Source: an uncultured delta proteobacterium (lineage in GTDB: Bacteria > Myxococcota_A > Polyangia > Polyangiales > Polyangiaceae). From it: 64,000 bases of DNA. The notes under the pieces were generated by a model. That model had not been told where the DNA came from, made no database searches, and saw only the letters and a program-made list of their open reading frames with translations. The stretch is taken from assembly GCA_963716725.1 (NCBI GenBank), contig CAVQUB010000015.1:288001-352000 (forward strand), written 5' to 3'. Below, in pieces: positions 26,799-33,555 of this stretch (positions are counted from its first letter, which is position 1; the number at the start of each line of letters is the position of its first letter). A program made the translations under genes and the position numbers.

Positions 26799-27827
26799 TC
26801 ACCACTGGCCGTCGCGCACCAGGTGCTTGGCCAACAGAACGAGCTTGTTCAGCGGACCCGGTGCGACGCTGTCGTCGTCCTGGAGCGGGAGCGTGCTCTT
26901 CTGGGCGTCGAGCTGCTTCACGCTCTCGATGCGCTTCAACGCATTTGTCCCGTCGAGCGTCTCGCAGTGCTCGTCGTAGAGCGCGAACCAGGGCAGCGCG
27001 TGCTTTCGATATTCCTTCGCGGTCACAGGTGACTGCGGCGGACGCTCGCCAGTGATCTCTCGCCACAGCTCGCTGTTCACGATGTGCAGGTAGATCCGCG
27101 CGCTGGCGTCGAGATCCCAGCTGTCGATGCCGTGGGGATCGGGGTAGATCTTTTGGTGCATGCTGCCGCCGGCGCCGAGGCCCATCGACCCCGCGCTCCG
27201 CGACTTTGCGCCCGGACTCATGGACGCGCGGTAGGGACCTGCCCCGGGGGCTGCGCATGGCGCCGGCATGGCGCCGAGGGAGCACTGCCCGAGATCGCTC
27301 CTTCGTGGCGGAAAGCGCCCGGGTTTTGGCGCGCAGACCTTGATCTGGATCCCGCCGAAGCGCTCTTCGCCGGTGACCTGGCCTTCCACCGTGTACCCCA
27401 TGCCGAGCGGCATGGCGATGAACTGTCGGATGCGACCCGGTCCGACGCAGATGCCGTCGAGCCACGGTTGCGGCGGCGCGACCAGGTAGTCCTGTGGCAC
27501 GTCGTGCAAGCGTTCGGACCAGGGGTCGCCCGTCAGCGCGCAGATCTTGCCCACGGCGATCTTGACGGCGTGGGGAACCAGGCTGCCAAACGAGAGCCAC
27601 ATGGCCTCGCGCTGGTACATGGGCAGGAATACGCCGCCGCGGCCAAGCCAATCGGCCGGGACGCGATCGGCGTAGTCGTCGACGCGGCGCACCGGAAACG
27701 CCCCGAGCCCGGGCGGCAGCGGATAGCTGCGGCCGTCGTCGGGGATGCGCAGCGTGCGTTGAAAGCGGATGCTGAGGTCGTTGCCGAAGGACACGCAGTC
27801 GTTCTTCACCTGTACGTCGAGCTTCAT
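26799..27827 (-). CDS. Conserved-looking hypothetical protein
   Basis: FQRTLRIPDDG..YPLPPGLG.FP, FLPMYQREAMW, QPWLDG, QFIAMPLGMGYTVEGQVTG and MGLGAGG..QKIY.D; AGGAG RBS. Confidence 0.75.
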   Translation of the reverse strand: MKLDVQVKNDCVSFGNDLSIRFQRTLRIPDDGRSYPLPPGLGAFPVRRVDDYADRVPADWLGRGGVFLPMYQREAMWLSFGSLVPHAVKIAVGKICALTGDPWSERLHDVPQDYLVAPPQPWLDGICVGPGRIRQFIAMPLGMGYTVEGQVTGEERFGGIQIKVCAPKPGRFPPRRSDLGQCSLGAMPAPCAAPGAGPYRASMSPGAKSRSAGSMGLGAGGSMHQKIYPDPHGIDSWDLDASARIYLHIVNSELWREITGERPPQSPVTAKEYRKHALPWFALYDEHCETLDGTNALKRIESVKQLDAQKSTLPLQDDDSVAPGPLNKLVLLAKHLVRDGQW

Positions 27828-27872
27828 CGGGTTCTCCTTCTCTGGGCGGGGTCGTCTGCCCACGAGAGAACC

Positions 27873-27898
27873 GACGGAGGGACCGCGGCGCTTGTCAC
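27873..27898 (-). promoter_or_regulatory. Putative ECF promoter GTGACA-N16-CGTC upstream of the 26799-27827 gene
   Basis: Same bipartite motif as the one upstream of the divergent sigma gene. Confidence 0.55.
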
Positions 27899-27966
27899 GG
27901 GGTTGCCGGACAGTCGCTTCAAGTTTCCGTAAGTAAGGGAGATTTTCGGGTTCCCGGGGGGGCGCG

Positions 27967-27993
27967 GTGACAGGAATGGCCCGCTGTCGTCTA
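27967..27993 (+). promoter_or_regulatory. Putative ECF autoregulatory promoter GTGACA-N15-CGTCTA
   Basis: Ends 8 nt before the sigma gene GTG, so the mRNA may be leaderless. Confidence 0.55.
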
Positions 27994-28001
27994 GTGGCGA
28001 G

Positions 28002-28961
28002 GTGGATGCCCTCGCGCCGTCCCGGGAGCTGTCGATGCTGATCGCGGCGGGCGATTTGCGCCGAGCCGGAGAGTGGCTCGTGGCGCGCTACGCGCGGGAC
28101 GTGATCGCGTTGTGTCGGAGCATGGTGAGAGAGCGCGCGCTCTCGGAGGATCTGGCGCAAGACGTGTTCGCGCAGGCGTTCGCGCACCTCGGAGGCTATC
28201 GCGCGGAGGCGGCGCCCCGGACCTGGCTGCTCGCCATCGCGCGCAACCGCTGCATCGATCAGCTCCGGCGCAGCGATCGTGAGCCCTGGCGAGATGCCGA
28301 CGACGGGCTCGAGGCGGATCACCTCGCGGACGACGCTCCACTGCCGCCCGAGCTGTTGCTGCGCCGTGCCGACGTCGATGACGCCTTGAGGGATCTGGAA
28401 GAGAACGAGCGAGCGCTGATTGTTCTGCGTTTCCGCCACGGACTCGAGTACCCCGAGCTGGCGAGCGTGTTCGGTTTGCGGGAAGGCACCGTGCGCATGC
28501 GGCTGTCGCGCGCGCTCGGCAAGATGCGCAGCAGGCTCGAAGCGCGGGACGGGCAGGCAGCGTCGCTTGGGGGCAGCGCCCCCGAAGCGCAGGGCGAAGC
28601 GGCGCCCTCGCGGGGGCGAGGGGCTATCGAGCTACCCGCTCCAGGCGCGCCGCCGCCGGCCGCGGCTCGAGCGCCTTCGTTCGCGCCGCCACTTGCCTCG
28701 GAGCAAGCCCCGAGCGCCCGGCCGCTGTCCGCTCCCTCGCGCGCGAGCCGAGCCACGTCGGGCGCTCCGGCTCCGCGGGCCGTGAGCTGGCTCGAACGCC
28801 TGCGCGGCTTCTTCCGCAGCGCCCCCGAGGAGCTCGCGCCAGAAGACACCGAGCCGCAGCCGCCCACGACGCCCTTCGCGGCGGCGCTCGCCGACCCCGA
28901 CGCCGAGCCGACCGAAGGGTTCTCCCGGAAGCTGGAGGCTCTCCTGGCTGGGCTGCCCTGA
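28002..28961 (+). CDS. ECF sigma-70 factor with Pro/Ala-rich C-terminal extension
   Basis: EDLAQDVF..., TWLLAIARNRCID (region 2); L.Y.ELA...G..EGTVRMRLSRA (region 4). Confidence 0.9.
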   Translation: MDALAPSRELSMLIAAGDLRRAGEWLVARYARDVIALCRSMVRERALSEDLAQDVFAQAFAHLGGYRAEAAPRTWLLAIARNRCIDQLRRSDREPWRDADDGLEADHLADDAPLPPELLLRRADVDDALRDLEENERALIVLRFRHGLEYPELASVFGLREGTVRMRLSRALGKMRSRLEARDGQAASLGGSAPEAQGEAAPSRGRGAIELPAPGAPPPAAARAPSFAPPLASEQAPSARPLSAPSRASRATSGAPAPRAVSWLERLRGFFRSAPEELAPEDTEPQPPTTPFAAALADPDAEPTEGFSRKLEALLAGLP

Positions 28962-28968
28962 TCGGGCG

Positions 28969-31201
28969 TCAGCCGCTGCGCACGGCCTTGGCTCGGAGCG
29001 ACGCGACGCTCACGCCGCCCTTCGTTCGCACCGCGACCCGCAGCGAATCGTCAGCGTCGACCGCCGGGGTCCAGCGGATCTCGCTGCCCGTGCCTTCGAC
29101 GAGTCCCTCGGCCTCCCAGCGCCAGGTCGCGCCCGCGGGCGCGCCGCGGAGCTGCGCGTCGATGGCGTCGCCGGTGCGAGTGGCGACGATTTCGATCTCG
29201 GGTGGATCGAAGAGCGGCAGATCCCGGCTTCGCACGGCGCGCCGGGCGCCGGTGTCGACCCATTGATCGATCACGTCGAGGCGCTTGCCTGCCGGAGCGT
29301 CGCCGTCGTTGAGCGACATGCCGCCGTCGGCGGGCGGCGGATCGGCGACCATCGAGTCGTCCTCGGCGTCCGCGTCCTTGCCGCCATCGTCGGGCAGCGC
29401 ATCGACCACCATCTGATCGGGCTCCACGTCGTAGCCGCTGTCGCCCGGCAGCGGATCAGCGACGAAGTGGTCGTCCTTGCCGCCGTCGGTCGGCGGATCG
29501 GTCGAGCTGGTGTCGCCCCCGCAGCCCGTGGCGCCGAGGGCCCAGAGCGCGAGCGAAGCCGTCAGCGCGACATTGGATCTCGAGCGCGCCGGCGCACGCT
29601 TCCGTGCCCGAGGCTCCCCGAGGCGGCGGACGAAAGCGCTGATGTCGGCGTAGAACTCGTCGAGCTCGTGCTGCCAGGCTCGGTCCGAGGCGGCGACATC
29701 GAGGGCCAAGAGCGCGGTTCCGCGCTCGATGGCGTCGAAGTCATCGAGGCTCGCCGACTGAGCCAGGTCGACGGCCTTCTCGAGCAACGCGGCAGTGTCG
29801 AGGGTGATGGCGCGGGTCAGTGACTCGGCGCGCTCGAGCAAGCGTCGGTGCGCCCCCCCGAGGTCCGGGTGGAAGTGCTCCACCAGCTTGGCCGCGTAGC
29901 CCACGCCCATGTAGCGGTTGGCCACACCGTCGCAGCGGTAGTTGCGCTCGCGGAACGCCGCCGACGCGATGCGGAACGCGAGCTCCGCTCGGGCGTCGTC
30001 GATGCGGTAGTTCCAGCCGAGGTAGCTGCCGCCGATCTTGCCGGCGTCGGCCAGACCCTGTTGCAGCGGCGTGCCGTAGTAGGGCTCGGCGCGGCAGAAG
30101 TTCACGGGCTGCGTCGGGTGCTCGCGCATGAACGCGATGTTCTCGCGCACGTCGGTCGAGGGTCGCCCCGGGCTCGAATACCAGCAGATTGTAGCAGGCG
30201 AAGATCCCGGCTTGCTCGCAGGCCGCCAGCGCCTGCGCCACGGCCTGGTGCTGCACGCCGCGGTTCAAATGCTCCGAGCCCGCGCGGGCCACGTTCTCGA
30301 CTCCGACGTAGAGGCGCACGACGCCCAGCGCGCGGAGCTCGGTGGCGAGCTCGGCGGTCAGGGTCTCGGGCCGGCATTTACCGATGAATCCGGCGCCTTC
30401 GACCTGCCGCGCGCGCAGACTGTCCCGGATGGCGCGGATCCGCGCCAGCGAGTCTTCGGGTTTGGGCAACAAGAAGTTGTCGTCGTGGAAGCAGAACACG
30501 CAGGCCTCGCCGATGGCGTGGCTGAGCCCCGCCATTTCGTCGGCGATGTTCTCGGGGCTGCGGAAGCGCAGCATCGGACCGCCGCCGTCGCGCTTGGCGT
30601 CGCGGTAGAACGACGTGATGGAGCAGTACGAGCAGCTGCCCCAGCAGCCGCGAGAGGCCATGATGGGCACGAAGGGCACGCCGGCGTGGCGCGCGGGCTG
30701 GCGGTAGCGGATGGGGAAGGGCAGCGAATCGAGGCTGGTGCCCAGGCCGCGCCCGGGGTTCTTGCGGACGCCCTCCGGTGCAGCGAGGGCGAGCCCACGC
30801 ACGGAGTCTAGGGGCTCACGTCGCTCGAGCTTCTCGAGCAGCTCGACGAAGGTCTCTTCGCCGTCGTGCAGCACCACGCTGTCGACCCCGTGCCCGCGGC
30901 CGAGCACCTCGCTGAAGGCCAGGGTCGGAAACTGTCCGCCCGCCGTCACGTGTCCGCGAAAGCCCTCGCGCCGCAGCAGGCGCGCCAGCGAGAGGAACTC
31001 GTGGGAGCGGTGCTGGAACTGCATGCTGAGCCCGACGACGTCGGGCGAGTCGTGGGCTATCTCGCGAGCGATGCGCCCGCGGGAGCCCGAGTCGTTGAAG
31101 GGCACGACTCGCACCTCGTGGCCGGCACCTTGCGCCACGGCCGCGATCATCCCGAGCCCGAAATTCTCCTCGAAGTCCGCCCCGACCAGCACCACGCGCA
31201 T
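28969..31201 (-). CDS. B12-binding radical SAM enzyme with C-terminal lipoprotein-like, repeat-bearing tail; frameshift at ~30156
   Basis: N-terminal cobalamin-binding domain (PDVVGLS, TAGGQFPT), RGCWGSCSYC, FHDDNF and LYVGVEN. One extra base in CTCGACCGACGTG separates TLD from DVRENIAF. Confidence 0.85.
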
Positions 31202-31286: not shown

Positions 31287-32606
31287 ATGCAGCTCATCGT
31301 CACCCACGACATGACGGACTTCGACGCTTTGGCCGCGGCGGTGGCCGCGCAGAAGCTCCATCCGGGCGCCGCGATCGCGCTGGGGCGTCGCGTGGGCAAA
31401 GAGGTGCGCGGGTACCTGGCGCTGCACAAGGACCGGTTCGTGACCTTGCTGCACTCCGAGATCGATCCGGAGCTGGTGCGCCACCTGATCGTCGTGGACG
31501 TGCGGCGCAAGAGCCGGCTCAGGGATTTTGCCCGACTGGTCGAGCGCGCGGAGCTCGGCGAGGTCGAGGTCACCGTCTACGATCACCATCCCGCCGACGA
31601 CGACGATCTGCGCGCTGACCGGGCGGTGATCGAGGCGGTCGGCTCGGCCACGACCCTGCTGGTGGAGCAGATGGACGCCGAAGACGTCGTCGTGGACGAG
31701 GTCGAGGCCACGCTGCTGGCGCTGGGCATCCACGCGGACACGGGCTCGCTCAACTATGCGGGCACCACCGCGCGCGACGCCCGTGCGCTCGGGTGGCTGC
31801 TCGACCAAGGCGCGAGCTTGGCGGTGATGAGCCGCTACCTCGAGCCGGCTTTCACCGGGGCCCAGCGAGCGCTCTTGGTGGAGCTGCTTGGCGCCATCGA
31901 GGTCGAGCACGTGGGCCACCTCGACGTCGCGTTTGTGCACAGGACCATGCCGCGGGCGGTGGAGGGCTTCGCCGAGGTGATCACCGAGATCGCGGAGCTG
32001 ACCGGGCACGCCGCCGTGTTCGCCGTGTTTGGCATCGCAGGCAAGCGCGTCCAGGTGGTCGCACGATCGCGCTCCCCGTTGGTCGACGTCGGTGCGTTGG
32101 TCTCGGCGGTCGGGGGTGGGGGACACCACGGCGCGGCGTCGGGGGCGCTCAAGCGCGAGGACTCGTTGGTCGTGATGGCGGAGCTGCAGGCGGCGGTTCG
32201 AGCGAACCCGCCGCAGGCAAGGCGCGTCTCAGATCTGATGTCGAGCCCCGTTCGAACGGTGTCGTCGACGACAACCCTGCGGGAGCTTGCGCGCTCGTTG
32301 ACCAGCTGGCGACACACCGGCGTGCCGGTCATGAAGGACGGCCAGATCGTGGGCATCGTCTCGCGTCGCGACATCGCGAAGGCCACGCGCAACGACAGCC
32401 TGTCGCTCCCGGTCTCGGGGGTGATGACGCACAAGGTCCATACGGTCGACTCCGAAGAGGCGCCGGAGCGCGCGCTCTCCCTGATGCAGAGTCAGGACGT
32501 CGGCCGGTTGCCCGTGCTCCGCGATGGCCGTCTCGTCGGCATCGTCACGCGCTCCGATCTGCGGCGCATGCTCTACGGAGAGAGCTCCCGGCCCCGCCAG
32601 GATTGA
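31287..32606 (+). CDS. DHH/DHHA1 phosphoesterase with C-terminal CBS pair
   Basis: TH..TDFDA, YDHH, GIHADTG and GGGGHHGAAS, then two CBS domains. Confidence 0.85.
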   Translation: MQLIVTHDMTDFDALAAAVAAQKLHPGAAIALGRRVGKEVRGYLALHKDRFVTLLHSEIDPELVRHLIVVDVRRKSRLRDFARLVERAELGEVEVTVYDHHPADDDDLRADRAVIEAVGSATTLLVEQMDAEDVVVDEVEATLLALGIHADTGSLNYAGTTARDARALGWLLDQGASLAVMSRYLEPAFTGAQRALLVELLGAIEVEHVGHLDVAFVHRTMPRAVEGFAEVITEIAELTGHAAVFAVFGIAGKRVQVVARSRSPLVDVGALVSAVGGGGHHGAASGALKREDSLVVMAELQAAVRANPPQARRVSDLMSSPVRTVSSTTTLRELARSLTSWRHTGVPVMKDGQIVGIVSRRDIAKATRNDSLSLPVSGVMTHKVHTVDSEEAPERALSLMQSQDVGRLPVLRDGRLVGIVTRSDLRRMLYGESSRPRQD

Positions 32607-32649
32607 GGGCCGCTGTCGCCGATCGCGGAACTGCCCTATCCTAGCCCGG

Positions 32650-33555
32650 GTGACCACGCCATCCGATCTCCCGCCGTCTCGCCGGGCGCCGCAGTCCCTC
32701 GCCAGCATGCAGGTCGACGTGACCACGCGAATGGGCGCGCTGCATCCGGCGACGGCCACGGGCTTGCCCATCCTCGATCGCATGCTGGCCGGGGGGCTCC
32801 GCCGGGGCGCGCTGATCTCGGTGGCCGGAGCCCCGGGAGTGGGCAAGACGGCCTTCGGTCTCCTGATCGCGTACATGGCCGCCCGCGCCCGCGCCGGGAC
32901 GGTGTTCGTGAGCCCGGTGCTCGACGAAACGGAGCTGGTGGCTCGCCTCGCGGCCAGGGCGCTGCACCGCGAACATCCGGACAGCCGGGTGAGCTACGGC
33001 GCGCTGTGGACCGGACAGGCGTGGCAGGACGAGGCGACCCACGCCGCAGTGAGCGCCGCCGTCGACACCGTGGTCAAGAAGGTCGGCAGCATGTTTCACG
33101 TCCACAAATGCGAGCCCTTCGAGTCCACGGAGAGCATCAAAGCAGCCGTGGCCCACCTCTGGGGTCGTCACGAGCGCGTCGTCCTCGTGGTCGACGGCAT
33201 CGAGTCCTTGAGCGCGTCGACGGGTGGCGATCCGGCTCGAGCCGCGACGGCAAACTCCGGGATCGAGAGCCGCGTCAGCCAAGTGGCGCTCGAGCTGCGC
33301 CGTATTGCCGAGGGCGGATGTGCCGTGGTGGTCAGCGCGCAGGCGTGTCACGCGGATCTGGTAGCTCCCGCCGCGACCGTGAGCGCGGAGCTTCGAAACG
33401 TCGAGGGCTCCCCCTCGCCGCTGACCGAGCGGCAGCTCGCCCTCGGTGCACGACCGGTGGAGCTGGTGATCCGCAAGAATCACGTCGGGCCCACGGGCAT
33501 CGTTCCCTTGCGTTTCATCGCGGGCGCGGCGACCTTCGAAGAGCGCGCGCCGTGA
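32650..33555 (+). CDS. Stand-alone DnaB-C/RecA-like P-loop ATPase
   Basis: TGLPILDRMLAGGLRRG, GAPGVGKT, VLVVDG and VELVIRKNHVGPTG. Confidence 0.75.
   Translation: MTTPSDLPPSRRAPQSLASMQVDVTTRMGALHPATATGLPILDRMLAGGLRRGALISVAGAPGVGKTAFGLLIAYMAARARAGTVFVSPVLDETELVARLAARALHREHPDSRVSYGALWTGQAWQDEATHAAVSAAVDTVVKKVGSMFHVHKCEPFESTESIKAAVAHLWGRHERVVLVVDGIESLSASTGGDPARAATANSGIESRVSQVALELRRIAEGGCAVVVSAQACHADLVAPAATVSAELRNVEGSPSPLTERQLALGARPVELVIRKNHVGPTGIVPLRFIAGAATFEERAP

Follow-up and report, generated by a model that had tools for sequence, protein, structure and literature searches.

Class B radical S-adenosylmethionine (SAM) enzymes, which depend on cobalamin (B12), do difficult chemistry on unactivated carbons, C-methylation being their commonest reaction, and to our knowledge most of them lack a known substrate. 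Here we describe a gene for such an enzyme from an uncultured delta proteobacterium of the family Polyangiaceae (Myxococcota). It lies on the minus strand of a 64,000-nucleotide stretch of contig CAVQUB010000015.1 (GenBank assembly GCA_963716725.1, positions 288,001 to 352,000), which we call the window, and its product runs on beyond the enzyme into a tail that consists of a signal-like segment, proline-rich repeats and a small domain predicted to be immunoglobulin (Ig)-like. OxsB, MgmA (a protein methylase), TsrM, CysS and TokK resemble it in having an N-terminal B12 domain and a CxxxCxxC radical SAM barrel, but they lack the internal signal-like segment, the repeats and the Ig-like end domain.

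Several systems of other kinds bear comparison with the tail. Borosins such as OphMA are self-modifying SAM-dependent alpha-N-methyltransferases fused to their own core peptide; here, too, the enzyme and a C-terminal, possibly modifiable region share one polypeptide, with no separate precursor gene nearby. Borosins differ in that the enzyme is an alpha-N-methyltransferase and not a radical SAM/B12 protein, in that no export signal lies between enzyme and core, and in that their self-modification has been demonstrated. Bacterial lipoprotein signals, the targets of Lgt and LspA, likewise combine a positive n-region, a short hydrophobic h-region, a small residue at position -1 and a cysteine, but they stand at the N-terminus, whereas the segment described here lies some 530-560 residues into the protein and its processing is putative. 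A precedent in logic comes from cytoplasmic radical SAM maturases of proteins that are exported later, namely AtsB/anSME (periplasmic sulfatases) and QhpD (the QhpC subunit), where the enzyme modifies its client before the client crosses the membrane; these enzymes are, however, SPASM/twitch-type, not B12-dependent, and are encoded apart from their clients. TonB shares with the window protein a proline-rich stretch and a small C-terminal domain that follow an N-in hydrophobic segment, but the window tail has no TonB_C match, is preceded by a 530-residue enzyme and includes a lipobox-like cysteine. Finally, the B12 radical SAM enzyme ApyD, which contains an RRE and converts a residue of the peptide ApyA to beta-methyltyrosine, shows that class B enzymes can C-methylate peptide residues (bioRxiv 10.1101/2023.10.30.564719). 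It differs in having separate precursor and partner genes, and the window protein has no tyrosine motif.

Set against these systems, the window protein is a class B radical SAM enzyme with a conserved C-terminal architecture that has not been described. A full-text literature search, with subscription journals largely outside its reach, returned no description of this architecture, and nothing relevant on cobalamin radical SAM enzymes fused to a precursor or on radical SAM proteins with a lipobox in myxobacteria. There is nonetheless a real, if lesser, chance that the finding is something categorically new. What we observe is the architecture itself, its conservation, a repeat motif exclusive to the family and the absence of conserved partner genes; together, the conserved architecture suggests, without proving it, that the tail is a target of its own enzyme and is exported afterwards. 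An earlier reading of the window, made from the sequence alone, had outlined an enzyme of this kind with a lipoprotein-like signal and repeats, and all the sequence features that it placed are found where it put them. The gene comprises the following parts (pLDDT, predicted local distance difference test).

31201 to 28969, minus strand: whole gene, encoding one 743-residue protein when a spurious base at 30153 is skipped

30836 to 31168, minus strand: cobalamin (B12)-binding domain, residues 12-122 (Pfam PF02310, E 1e-16, 61 bits against a cut-off of 32)

30155 to 30655, minus strand: Radical SAM core, residues 183-349 (Pfam PF04055, E 5e-15, 57 bits against a cut-off of 29.5)

30153, no strand given: extra base that breaks the frame, absent from contigs of the public runs X1, X5 and X9; intact allele P0153

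29611 to 30152, minus strand: end of the radical SAM barrel and helical bundle, with long helices (pLDDT above 85 in an ortholog model)

within 29611 to 30152, minus strand: pair of helices (window sequences ARAELAFRIASAA and FDAIERGTALLAL) between which the tail is predicted to be clamped

29575 to 29610, minus strand: basic n-region RARKRAPARSRS, median net charge +4 in the family

29524 to 29574, minus strand: short hydrophobic h-region NVALTASLALWALGATG, an uncharged and weakly hydrophobic run

29521 to 29523, minus strand: invariant cysteine (37 of 37 proteins) ending the lipobox-like A-T-G-C

29290 to 29520, minus strand: acidic proline-rich linker with four D-P-x-P units, the family motif

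29505 to 29488, minus strand: repeat unit STDPPT

29466 to 29446, minus strand: repeat unit FVADPLP

29412 to 29392, minus strand: repeat unit MVVDALP

29352 to 29332, minus strand: repeat unit MVADPPP

29197 to 29289, minus strand: conserved segment I-D-Q-W-x-D-T ... S-R-D-L-P-L-F-D-P-P-E, with invariant Q, W, D, L, P and P

28972 to 29196, minus strand: Ig/PKD-like seven-strand beta sandwich (AlphaFold2, pLDDT above 80)

Is the fusion of enzyme and tail real? Sixteen of 41 related genomes match the second half of the gene. Genomes of the same genus (G001-G005) carry it as uninterrupted frames of 746-780 residues with 66-83% identity, and other families of the order have frames of 762-783 residues at about 50% identity, so that the fusion is not a missed stop, as the sequence-only reading had allowed it might be. 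A profile of the last 106 residues finds the tail in 57 of 401 genomes of the order (41 of 304 high-quality genomes; 31 of 136 genera). Its 70 places all fall in open frames of 637-1346 residues bar seven, which are the window itself (431), one other frameshifted copy (406) and five pieces no more than 100 bases from a contig start. A wider scan that took one genome per species across 185,579 species yielded 46 loci, all from metagenome-assembled genomes (MAGs) labelled Polyangiaceae, Sandaracinaceae, Nannocystaceae, Haliangium, Myxococcales, Myxococcota, 'Deltaproteobacteria' and, once, 'proteobacterium'. CxxxCxxC is present in the end-domain frame at 39 of these loci, and tblastn shows a further locus to be full length; of the remaining six, two have the enzyme upstream but carry frameshifts and four are cut by a contig end. 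Upstream DNA is retained at 42 loci, and at every one of them the radical SAM part precedes the tail; a stand-alone tail, such as a separate neighbouring lipoprotein gene, occurs neither among these 42 loci nor in the 401 genomes of the order. When a profile of the conserved segment and end domain was run against 1.84 billion representative proteins it gave 151 hits, 122 of them at E 1e-10 or better; among 25 inspected from the 150 listed, most of the short ones begin in the enzyme or helical region and are fragment-like, and one (P0026) has an unrelated N-terminus. Homologs, in short, keep tail and motif: the fusion is the rule in the family, and the family is restricted to Polyangia (Myxococcota).

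In the window assembly itself the gene is broken. It starts at an ATG at 31201, with GGAGGTG upstream, and stops at 28971-28969 on the minus strand, but the list of open reading frames (ORFs) divides it into two frames. The first, 31201..29741, holds the B12-binding and Radical_SAM matches and is nonsense beyond ...FEPGATLD; the second, 30150..28969 (393 residues), holds the remainder of the protein, including the tail. The sequence-only reading had suspected an indel near 30156. A single-base frame break does exist; it is an extra base and it sits at 30153, as contigs from public runs and the protein P0153 show. Contigs of four public metagenome runs from four studies (X1, X5, X9 and X10) were aligned to the gene. 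Base 30153 is left out by two X5 contigs, and the loose ends of X1, X5 and X9 contigs that end at 30152 equal the window sequence from 30154 onwards; X10 has no coverage at 30153, and X1, possibly the same sample as the window's source, is not counted as independent support. With the base skipped there is a single 743-residue frame with one terminal stop, and the junction, ATLDHVRENIAFM, agrees with the orthologs' ...HVRENIAFM. P0153, a public protein of 743 residues, is intact and identical to the repaired window protein at 735 of 743 positions (346 of 349 over the first part, 387 of 393 over the second). Because P0153 is both full-length and near-identical, near-identical strains evidently have an intact gene. 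Base 30153 is either a mistake of assembly or consensus calling or a lesion that only the window assembly has. Frameshifts also occur in the same gene in other assemblies (L014/L061 from genome G025, and L075), one of them in the tail and several along the gene; they look like indel errors of long-read MAGs and are a warning for automated annotation of the family.

The enzyme part satisfies what is expected of a cobalamin-dependent (class B) radical SAM protein in its B12 domain, its CxxxCxxC core and its modelled fold, and it would be predicted to bind cobalamin, SAM and a 4Fe-4S cluster and to turn over a substrate. The cluster motif reads CWGSCSYC (30646-30623) and lies inside the Radical_SAM domain; its three cysteines are invariant in an alignment of 37 full-length family proteins with a mean identity of about 52%, on which the family counts below are also based. 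A Foldseek search with a modelled ortholog enzyme returned solved class B structures at E values from 1e-20 to 4e-15, with OxsB at 1e-20, MgmA at 6e-18, TsrM at 9e-18, CysS at 6e-16 and TokK at 2e-15, and AprD4 is also among the structural likenesses. Sequence identity to these structures is only 15-18%, and a sequence search finds OxsB alone (E 4e-11). No named NCBIfam family claims the enzyme by score: the best-scoring named model is that of ApyD (NF050148; E 1e-21, 77 bits against a cut-off of 750), and the nearest named families include the lipid-modifying HpnR, HpnJ and ladderane-type enzymes, all below cut-off. Pfam and NCBIfam detect the B12-binding and radical SAM domains only, and no SAM-dependent alpha-N-methyltransferase domain. 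In public databases members of the family go by 'radical SAM protein', 'B12-binding domain-containing radical SAM protein', 'YgiQ' or 'hypothetical'.

Between enzyme and linker lies a segment with the tripartite layout of a type II signal, in which a positively charged n-region leads into a brief h-region free of charges and then into a small residue with cysteine behind it; only the N-terminal position expected of a lipoprotein signal is missing. The cysteine that the sequence-only reading had likened to a lipobox cysteine, at about residue 560 of 743, is invariant across the family and is preceded at position -1 by G in 25 proteins, A in 11 and S in one. Thirty-five of the 37 proteins fit the PROSITE-type lipobox pattern {DERK}6-[LIVMFWSTAG]2-[LIVMFYSTAGCQ]-[AGS]-C. 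The uncharged run ahead of the cysteine has a median length of 16 residues, the 15 residues that precede the run have a median net charge of +4, and acidic residues follow downstream of the cysteine. Hydrophobicity is modest, with a median Kyte-Doolittle mean of 1.26 over 19 residues (none of the 37 proteins reaches 1.6) and of 1.85 over 11 residues; the run looks more like a cleavable signal than like a stable anchor. The genome also encodes LspA (86 bits, with the cut-off at 74). By eye, about a third of the 37 members have a second cysteine one to three residues after the invariant one (CxC or CxxC; GCECG, GCDGCG, ACDSCG), which is absent from the window's genus.

Might the tail be translated separately? 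The window has no in-frame ATG, GTG or TTG 11-40 codons upstream of the cysteine, in keeping with the sequence-only reading, which had seen no start just before it. Across the family an in-frame start is present in this interval in 31 of 38 cases and missing in seven, the window included, but the positions of these starts are not conserved, only four of 38 have a Shine-Dalgarno-like site, and their rate is, on a rough estimate, about that of chance; we reject an internal translation start on these grounds. Inspection of the listed n-regions by eye revealed no conserved RR of a twin-arginine (Tat) signal. We also rejected NF058595 (invert_tail, a putative lipo-invert C-terminal anchoring domain), which matches three of ten tails at 15-18 bits against a cut-off of 37 and is non-specific, since it also scores below cut-off at nine other sites of this genome and in 10 of the 14 genomes that served as controls; the literature searched gave no paper using its term lipo-invert.

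The linker that follows is 20% proline and 17% aspartate and is built around repeats. Units were collected with D-[PA]-x-P as the search pattern, which itself dictates the positions it names; this gave 198 units in the 37 proteins, between two and 12 per protein (median 5), and the D-P-x-P repeats are thus conserved yet variable in number, which is what the sequence-only reading had wished to see examined. Conservation extends to the free positions (V-1 65%, V-2 65%, M-3 40%, D+5 80%, G+7 69%), with the consensus D-x-M-V-V-D-P-P-P-P-D-A-G. Distant members have glycine-rich instead of acidic linkers but keep [VI]-[VA]-D-x-x-P units. If the repeat were a linker common to Polyangia, we would expect to meet it elsewhere, and motif counts rule this out. 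Across the frames of at least 100 residues in the same 7.9-Mb genome, [MFIVL][VI][VAIW][DE][PA][PLVA]P occurs 23 times, and this gene alone has two or more copies (three). A coding pattern for MVVDPPPPD has 24 matches in 15 of the 401 genomes (reversed control, none), 22 of them no more than 500 nucleotides upstream of a family C-terminal domain; the other two both lie at a contig end, the genome concerned having its copy of the gene in pieces on different contigs. Among the 401 genomes, then, the repeat motif is exclusive to this family. Two genes contain three or four units that are identical or near-identical in DNA (G116:C4:182434-182673 and G040:C120:19600-19734), from which it follows that repeat number is still changing, by recent duplication. 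The unit D-(T/x)-M-V-V (window 29332-29466, and other loci) resembles the TonB box consensus; if that likeness is real, the repeats would serve to dock a TonB-like domain and would not be enzyme substrates.

No partner gene accompanies the enzyme. Six orthologs were compared with the ORFs of window positions 16-44 kb, and only the gene itself finds matches around them; within 4-8 kb no conserved neighbour encoding a precursor peptide or maturation factor appears, and no neighbour family occurs at more than five of 47 loci, the recurrences being between close relatives. A conserved operon is rejected accordingly for the six orthologs and the 47 loci alike. The tail of the protein itself is the sole candidate substrate.

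The end of the tail, described in the sequence-only reading as a small beta-rich domain, is modelled by AlphaFold2 as a seven-strand beta sandwich. Its structural neighbours are generic Ig/PKD domains (best Foldseek E 0.014, best VIA Z 7.8, Atlas leads to PKD below 0.9). Pfam has no family on the window tail or seven other tails, five long relatives' tails are likewise empty, and seven long proteins give only the two enzyme domains; the TonB C-terminal domain has no match on the window tail or on eight ortholog tails. For a full-length model we used an ortholog of 738 residues with the 37-row alignment (mean pLDDT 81.8, predicted template modelling score, pTM, 0.81). Residues 1-533 (enzyme and long helices) and 650-738 (beta sandwich) are confident, and residues 534-649, which hold the signal-like segment and the repeats, have pLDDT below 50 and no secondary structure.

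A complex prediction of the ortholog's enzyme (1-532) with its tail (561-738) docks the two at an interface score, ipSAE, of 0.79 (runs 0.80, 0.79 and 0.77) against 0.01 for the best control. The mark applied to this score is reached by 58 of 80 solved complexes and two of 110 mismatched pairs, a rough calibration (own paired alignment used); pLDDT of the partner is 54 or higher, and 19% or more of the contacts are common to the runs. In the predicted contact, the L-P-L of the invariant R-D-L-P-L-x-x-P-P forms the centre and lies between the conserved helices 403-415 and 488-500, where the expected error is lowest, strands of the beta domain pack on residues 496-514, and the enzyme contributes residues 390-418 and 485-514 to the interface. 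The prediction lends support to, but does not demonstrate, the tail physically touching the enzyme in some state, and such docking fits action in cis.

How might these parts work together? Tentatively, we favour a single-chain cassette of enzyme and client, in which the enzyme would act on its own tail and the tail would then be exported, lipidated and cut off. Residues 1 to about 530 would be a cytoplasmic class B radical SAM enzyme with a helical bundle. The newly made tail would be held on that bundle through the D-L-P-L segment and the Ig-like domain, so that the repeats, tethered at both ends beside the active site, could be modified in cis, for example by C-methylation. The weakly hydrophobic signal would then carry the tail across the inner membrane post-translationally, as weak hydrophobicity favours that route (targeting by SecA as opposed to the signal recognition particle, SRP), and Lgt and LspA would lipidate and cut at the invariant cysteine, freeing a modified lipoprotein while the enzyme stays behind. 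A transient complex before export is favoured because it accounts both for a lipobox-type signal, which implies export, and for docking, which requires that tail and enzyme share a compartment. The most specific version, one gene in which a follower-like D-L-P-L segment and the Ig-like domain do the holding, V-V-D-P-x-P is modified in cis and LspA releases a lipid-anchored envelope protein, is doubtful as a whole. The sequence-only reading had proposed that the enzyme alters its own repeats before the tail is exported or lipidated; the universal presence of tail and motif in homologs and the predicted docking speak for this idea, and the predicted contact does not run through the repeats.

A number of observations argue against this cassette. 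Neither model places the repeats, the contact being made by the D-L-P-L segment and the beta domain only, and the interface residues E..FR are not specific to tailed proteins, since paralog L004, which has no tail, also keeps them. Sec export would first require a folded Ig-like domain to come off the cytoplasmic enzyme and unfold, and docking of the beta domain to a cytoplasmic enzyme, as modelled, is in tension with a permanently exported tail. AlphaFold2 gives the hydrophobic stretch no helix, and the literature searched, in which subscription journals were largely uncovered, holds no precedent for a lipoprotein signal some 560 residues into a protein. One protein of 214 residues (P0001) starts at a methionine just before the hydrophobic run and is either a separate tail gene or a fragment. 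Lastly, the peptide-modifying B12 families score far under their cut-offs (TIGR03975 at 50 against 282 bits, besides the 77 against 750 of NF050148).

There are other scenarios that might explain the architecture. Imagine that the hydrophobic run is never cleaved and serves as an N-in/C-out anchor that tethers the enzyme to the membrane, with the repeats as a rigid periplasmic spacer and the Ig-like domain binding a partner in the envelope, much as TonB or an anti-sigma factor does; the substrate would then be something else, for example a membrane lipid or protein. The charge asymmetry around the run fits such a topology, as do the proline- and aspartate-rich linker and the Ig/PKD-like fold of the end domain, and the nearest named families, sub-cut-off as they are, include lipid-modifying enzymes. 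The paralog L003 in the same genome moreover joins the same enzyme to a hydrophobic run with cysteine, a proline-rich stretch and a weak TonB C-terminal match. We nevertheless regard this scenario as unlikely. A stable anchor would need a longer and more hydrophobic run than this one, the invariant cysteine after G, A or S is left unexplained, and a plain spacer would not be expected to retain a family-exclusive motif while linker composition changes. Moreover, the predicted docking would be impossible if tail and enzyme were always on opposite sides of the membrane.

Alternatively, the protein might never leave the cytoplasm, or be peripheral to the membrane, with the Ig-like domain permanently packed on the helical bundle and residues of about 534-649 forming a long loop that may or may not be a substrate. 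The hydrophobic stretch would then dip into the membrane or be an internal recognition element, and the cysteine would be a ligand, a redox site or a target. This would agree with the strong complex prediction, with a full-length model in which both folded parts are confident, with a hydrophobic stretch that is weak and not modelled as a helix, and with the second cysteine in about a third of the family. If the stretch were only a loop, however, it would need neither the lipobox fit nor the small residue at -1 in all 37 proteins, nor the positive n-region and the acidic residues after the cysteine; three further paralog types of the genus keep the basic stretch, the run and the cysteine ahead of different tails, and tails of this composition and an Ig/PKD-like fold are commoner outside the cytoplasm (general knowledge and weak Atlas leads). 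On balance we hold a wholly cytoplasmic protein to be improbable as well. That the gene is an artefact, with separate enzyme and lipoprotein genes run together through a missed stop or an error of sequencing, or else a dead pseudogene, is very improbable despite the frameshifts in the window and in L061/L014 and L075, as the break sits upstream in the enzyme core, the extra base is missing from the three runs that reach 30153 and from P0153, no conserved start codon exists for a separate tail, and the enzyme-tail junction, for which this explanation is excluded, is open in every ortholog examined.

To return to the conserved architecture, its elements recur in paralogs. The window's genus has three or four paralog types, each with its own tail, and one paralog type has no tail; three paralogs are found in the window's own genome (L002, L003 and L004, on contigs C3, C12 and C9) and L076-L087 genus-wide. 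In type 2 the sequence ...IALTPLAC is followed by repeated P-P-P-D-P-L-P-P-P. Type 3 reads ...GC-KEKSHPTEMVAIP and continues with a weakly TonB-C-like domain and RPEMAPRPPPP repeats; in L003 the TonB C-terminal match has E 3e-4 and 21 bits against a cut-off of 27. Type 4 has a shorter tail with the same SHPTEMVA start (SHPTEMVA...HPSEMAP). Lysine follows the cysteine in two paralog types. A basic stretch, a hydrophobic run, a cysteine and a proline-rich tail are thus a recurring theme of this enzyme clade, with motifs particular to each paralog.

The genes around the enzyme in the window are of other kinds. At 28002-28961 on the plus strand lies an ECF (extracytoplasmic function)-type sigma factor (Sigma70_r2, r4, TIGR02937) whose C-terminus is extended by some 130 residues rich in Ala and Pro; it is convergent with the radical SAM gene, with eight bases between their ends, and the pairing is not conserved at orthologous loci. 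A long ORF without a Pfam or NCBIfam match occupies 26799-28439 on the minus strand. Its likely start is an internal ATG (MKLDVQVKND...), and the listed form of 546 residues is probably too long because its upstream part overlaps the sigma factor gene on the opposite strand. On the other side, a gene for a DHH/DHHA1 phosphoesterase that also has two CBS domains (31287-32606, plus strand) is transcribed away from the enzyme gene and is followed by one for a DnaB_C/KaiC-like ATPase (32524-33555, plus strand), and ORFs of these two kinds flank the gene only in its two closest relatives (L030 and L031).

What would this mean for the biology of these bacteria? The family, apparently uniquely, may have a candidate substrate built into its own polypeptide and so require no further gene, and the question of its substrate thereby becomes directly testable. 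If the most specific version of the cassette is true, no radical SAM enzyme fused to its substrate would have been known before it, nor any lipoprotein that is produced from an internal part of a longer chain; and if the tail is processed, lipoproteins can arise from polyproteins, which current annotation and signal-peptide predictors do not foresee. The family is confined to poorly studied, mostly uncultured Polyangia, and the multiple tail types within a single genus point to a lineage-specific expansion of envelope-directed radical SAM systems.

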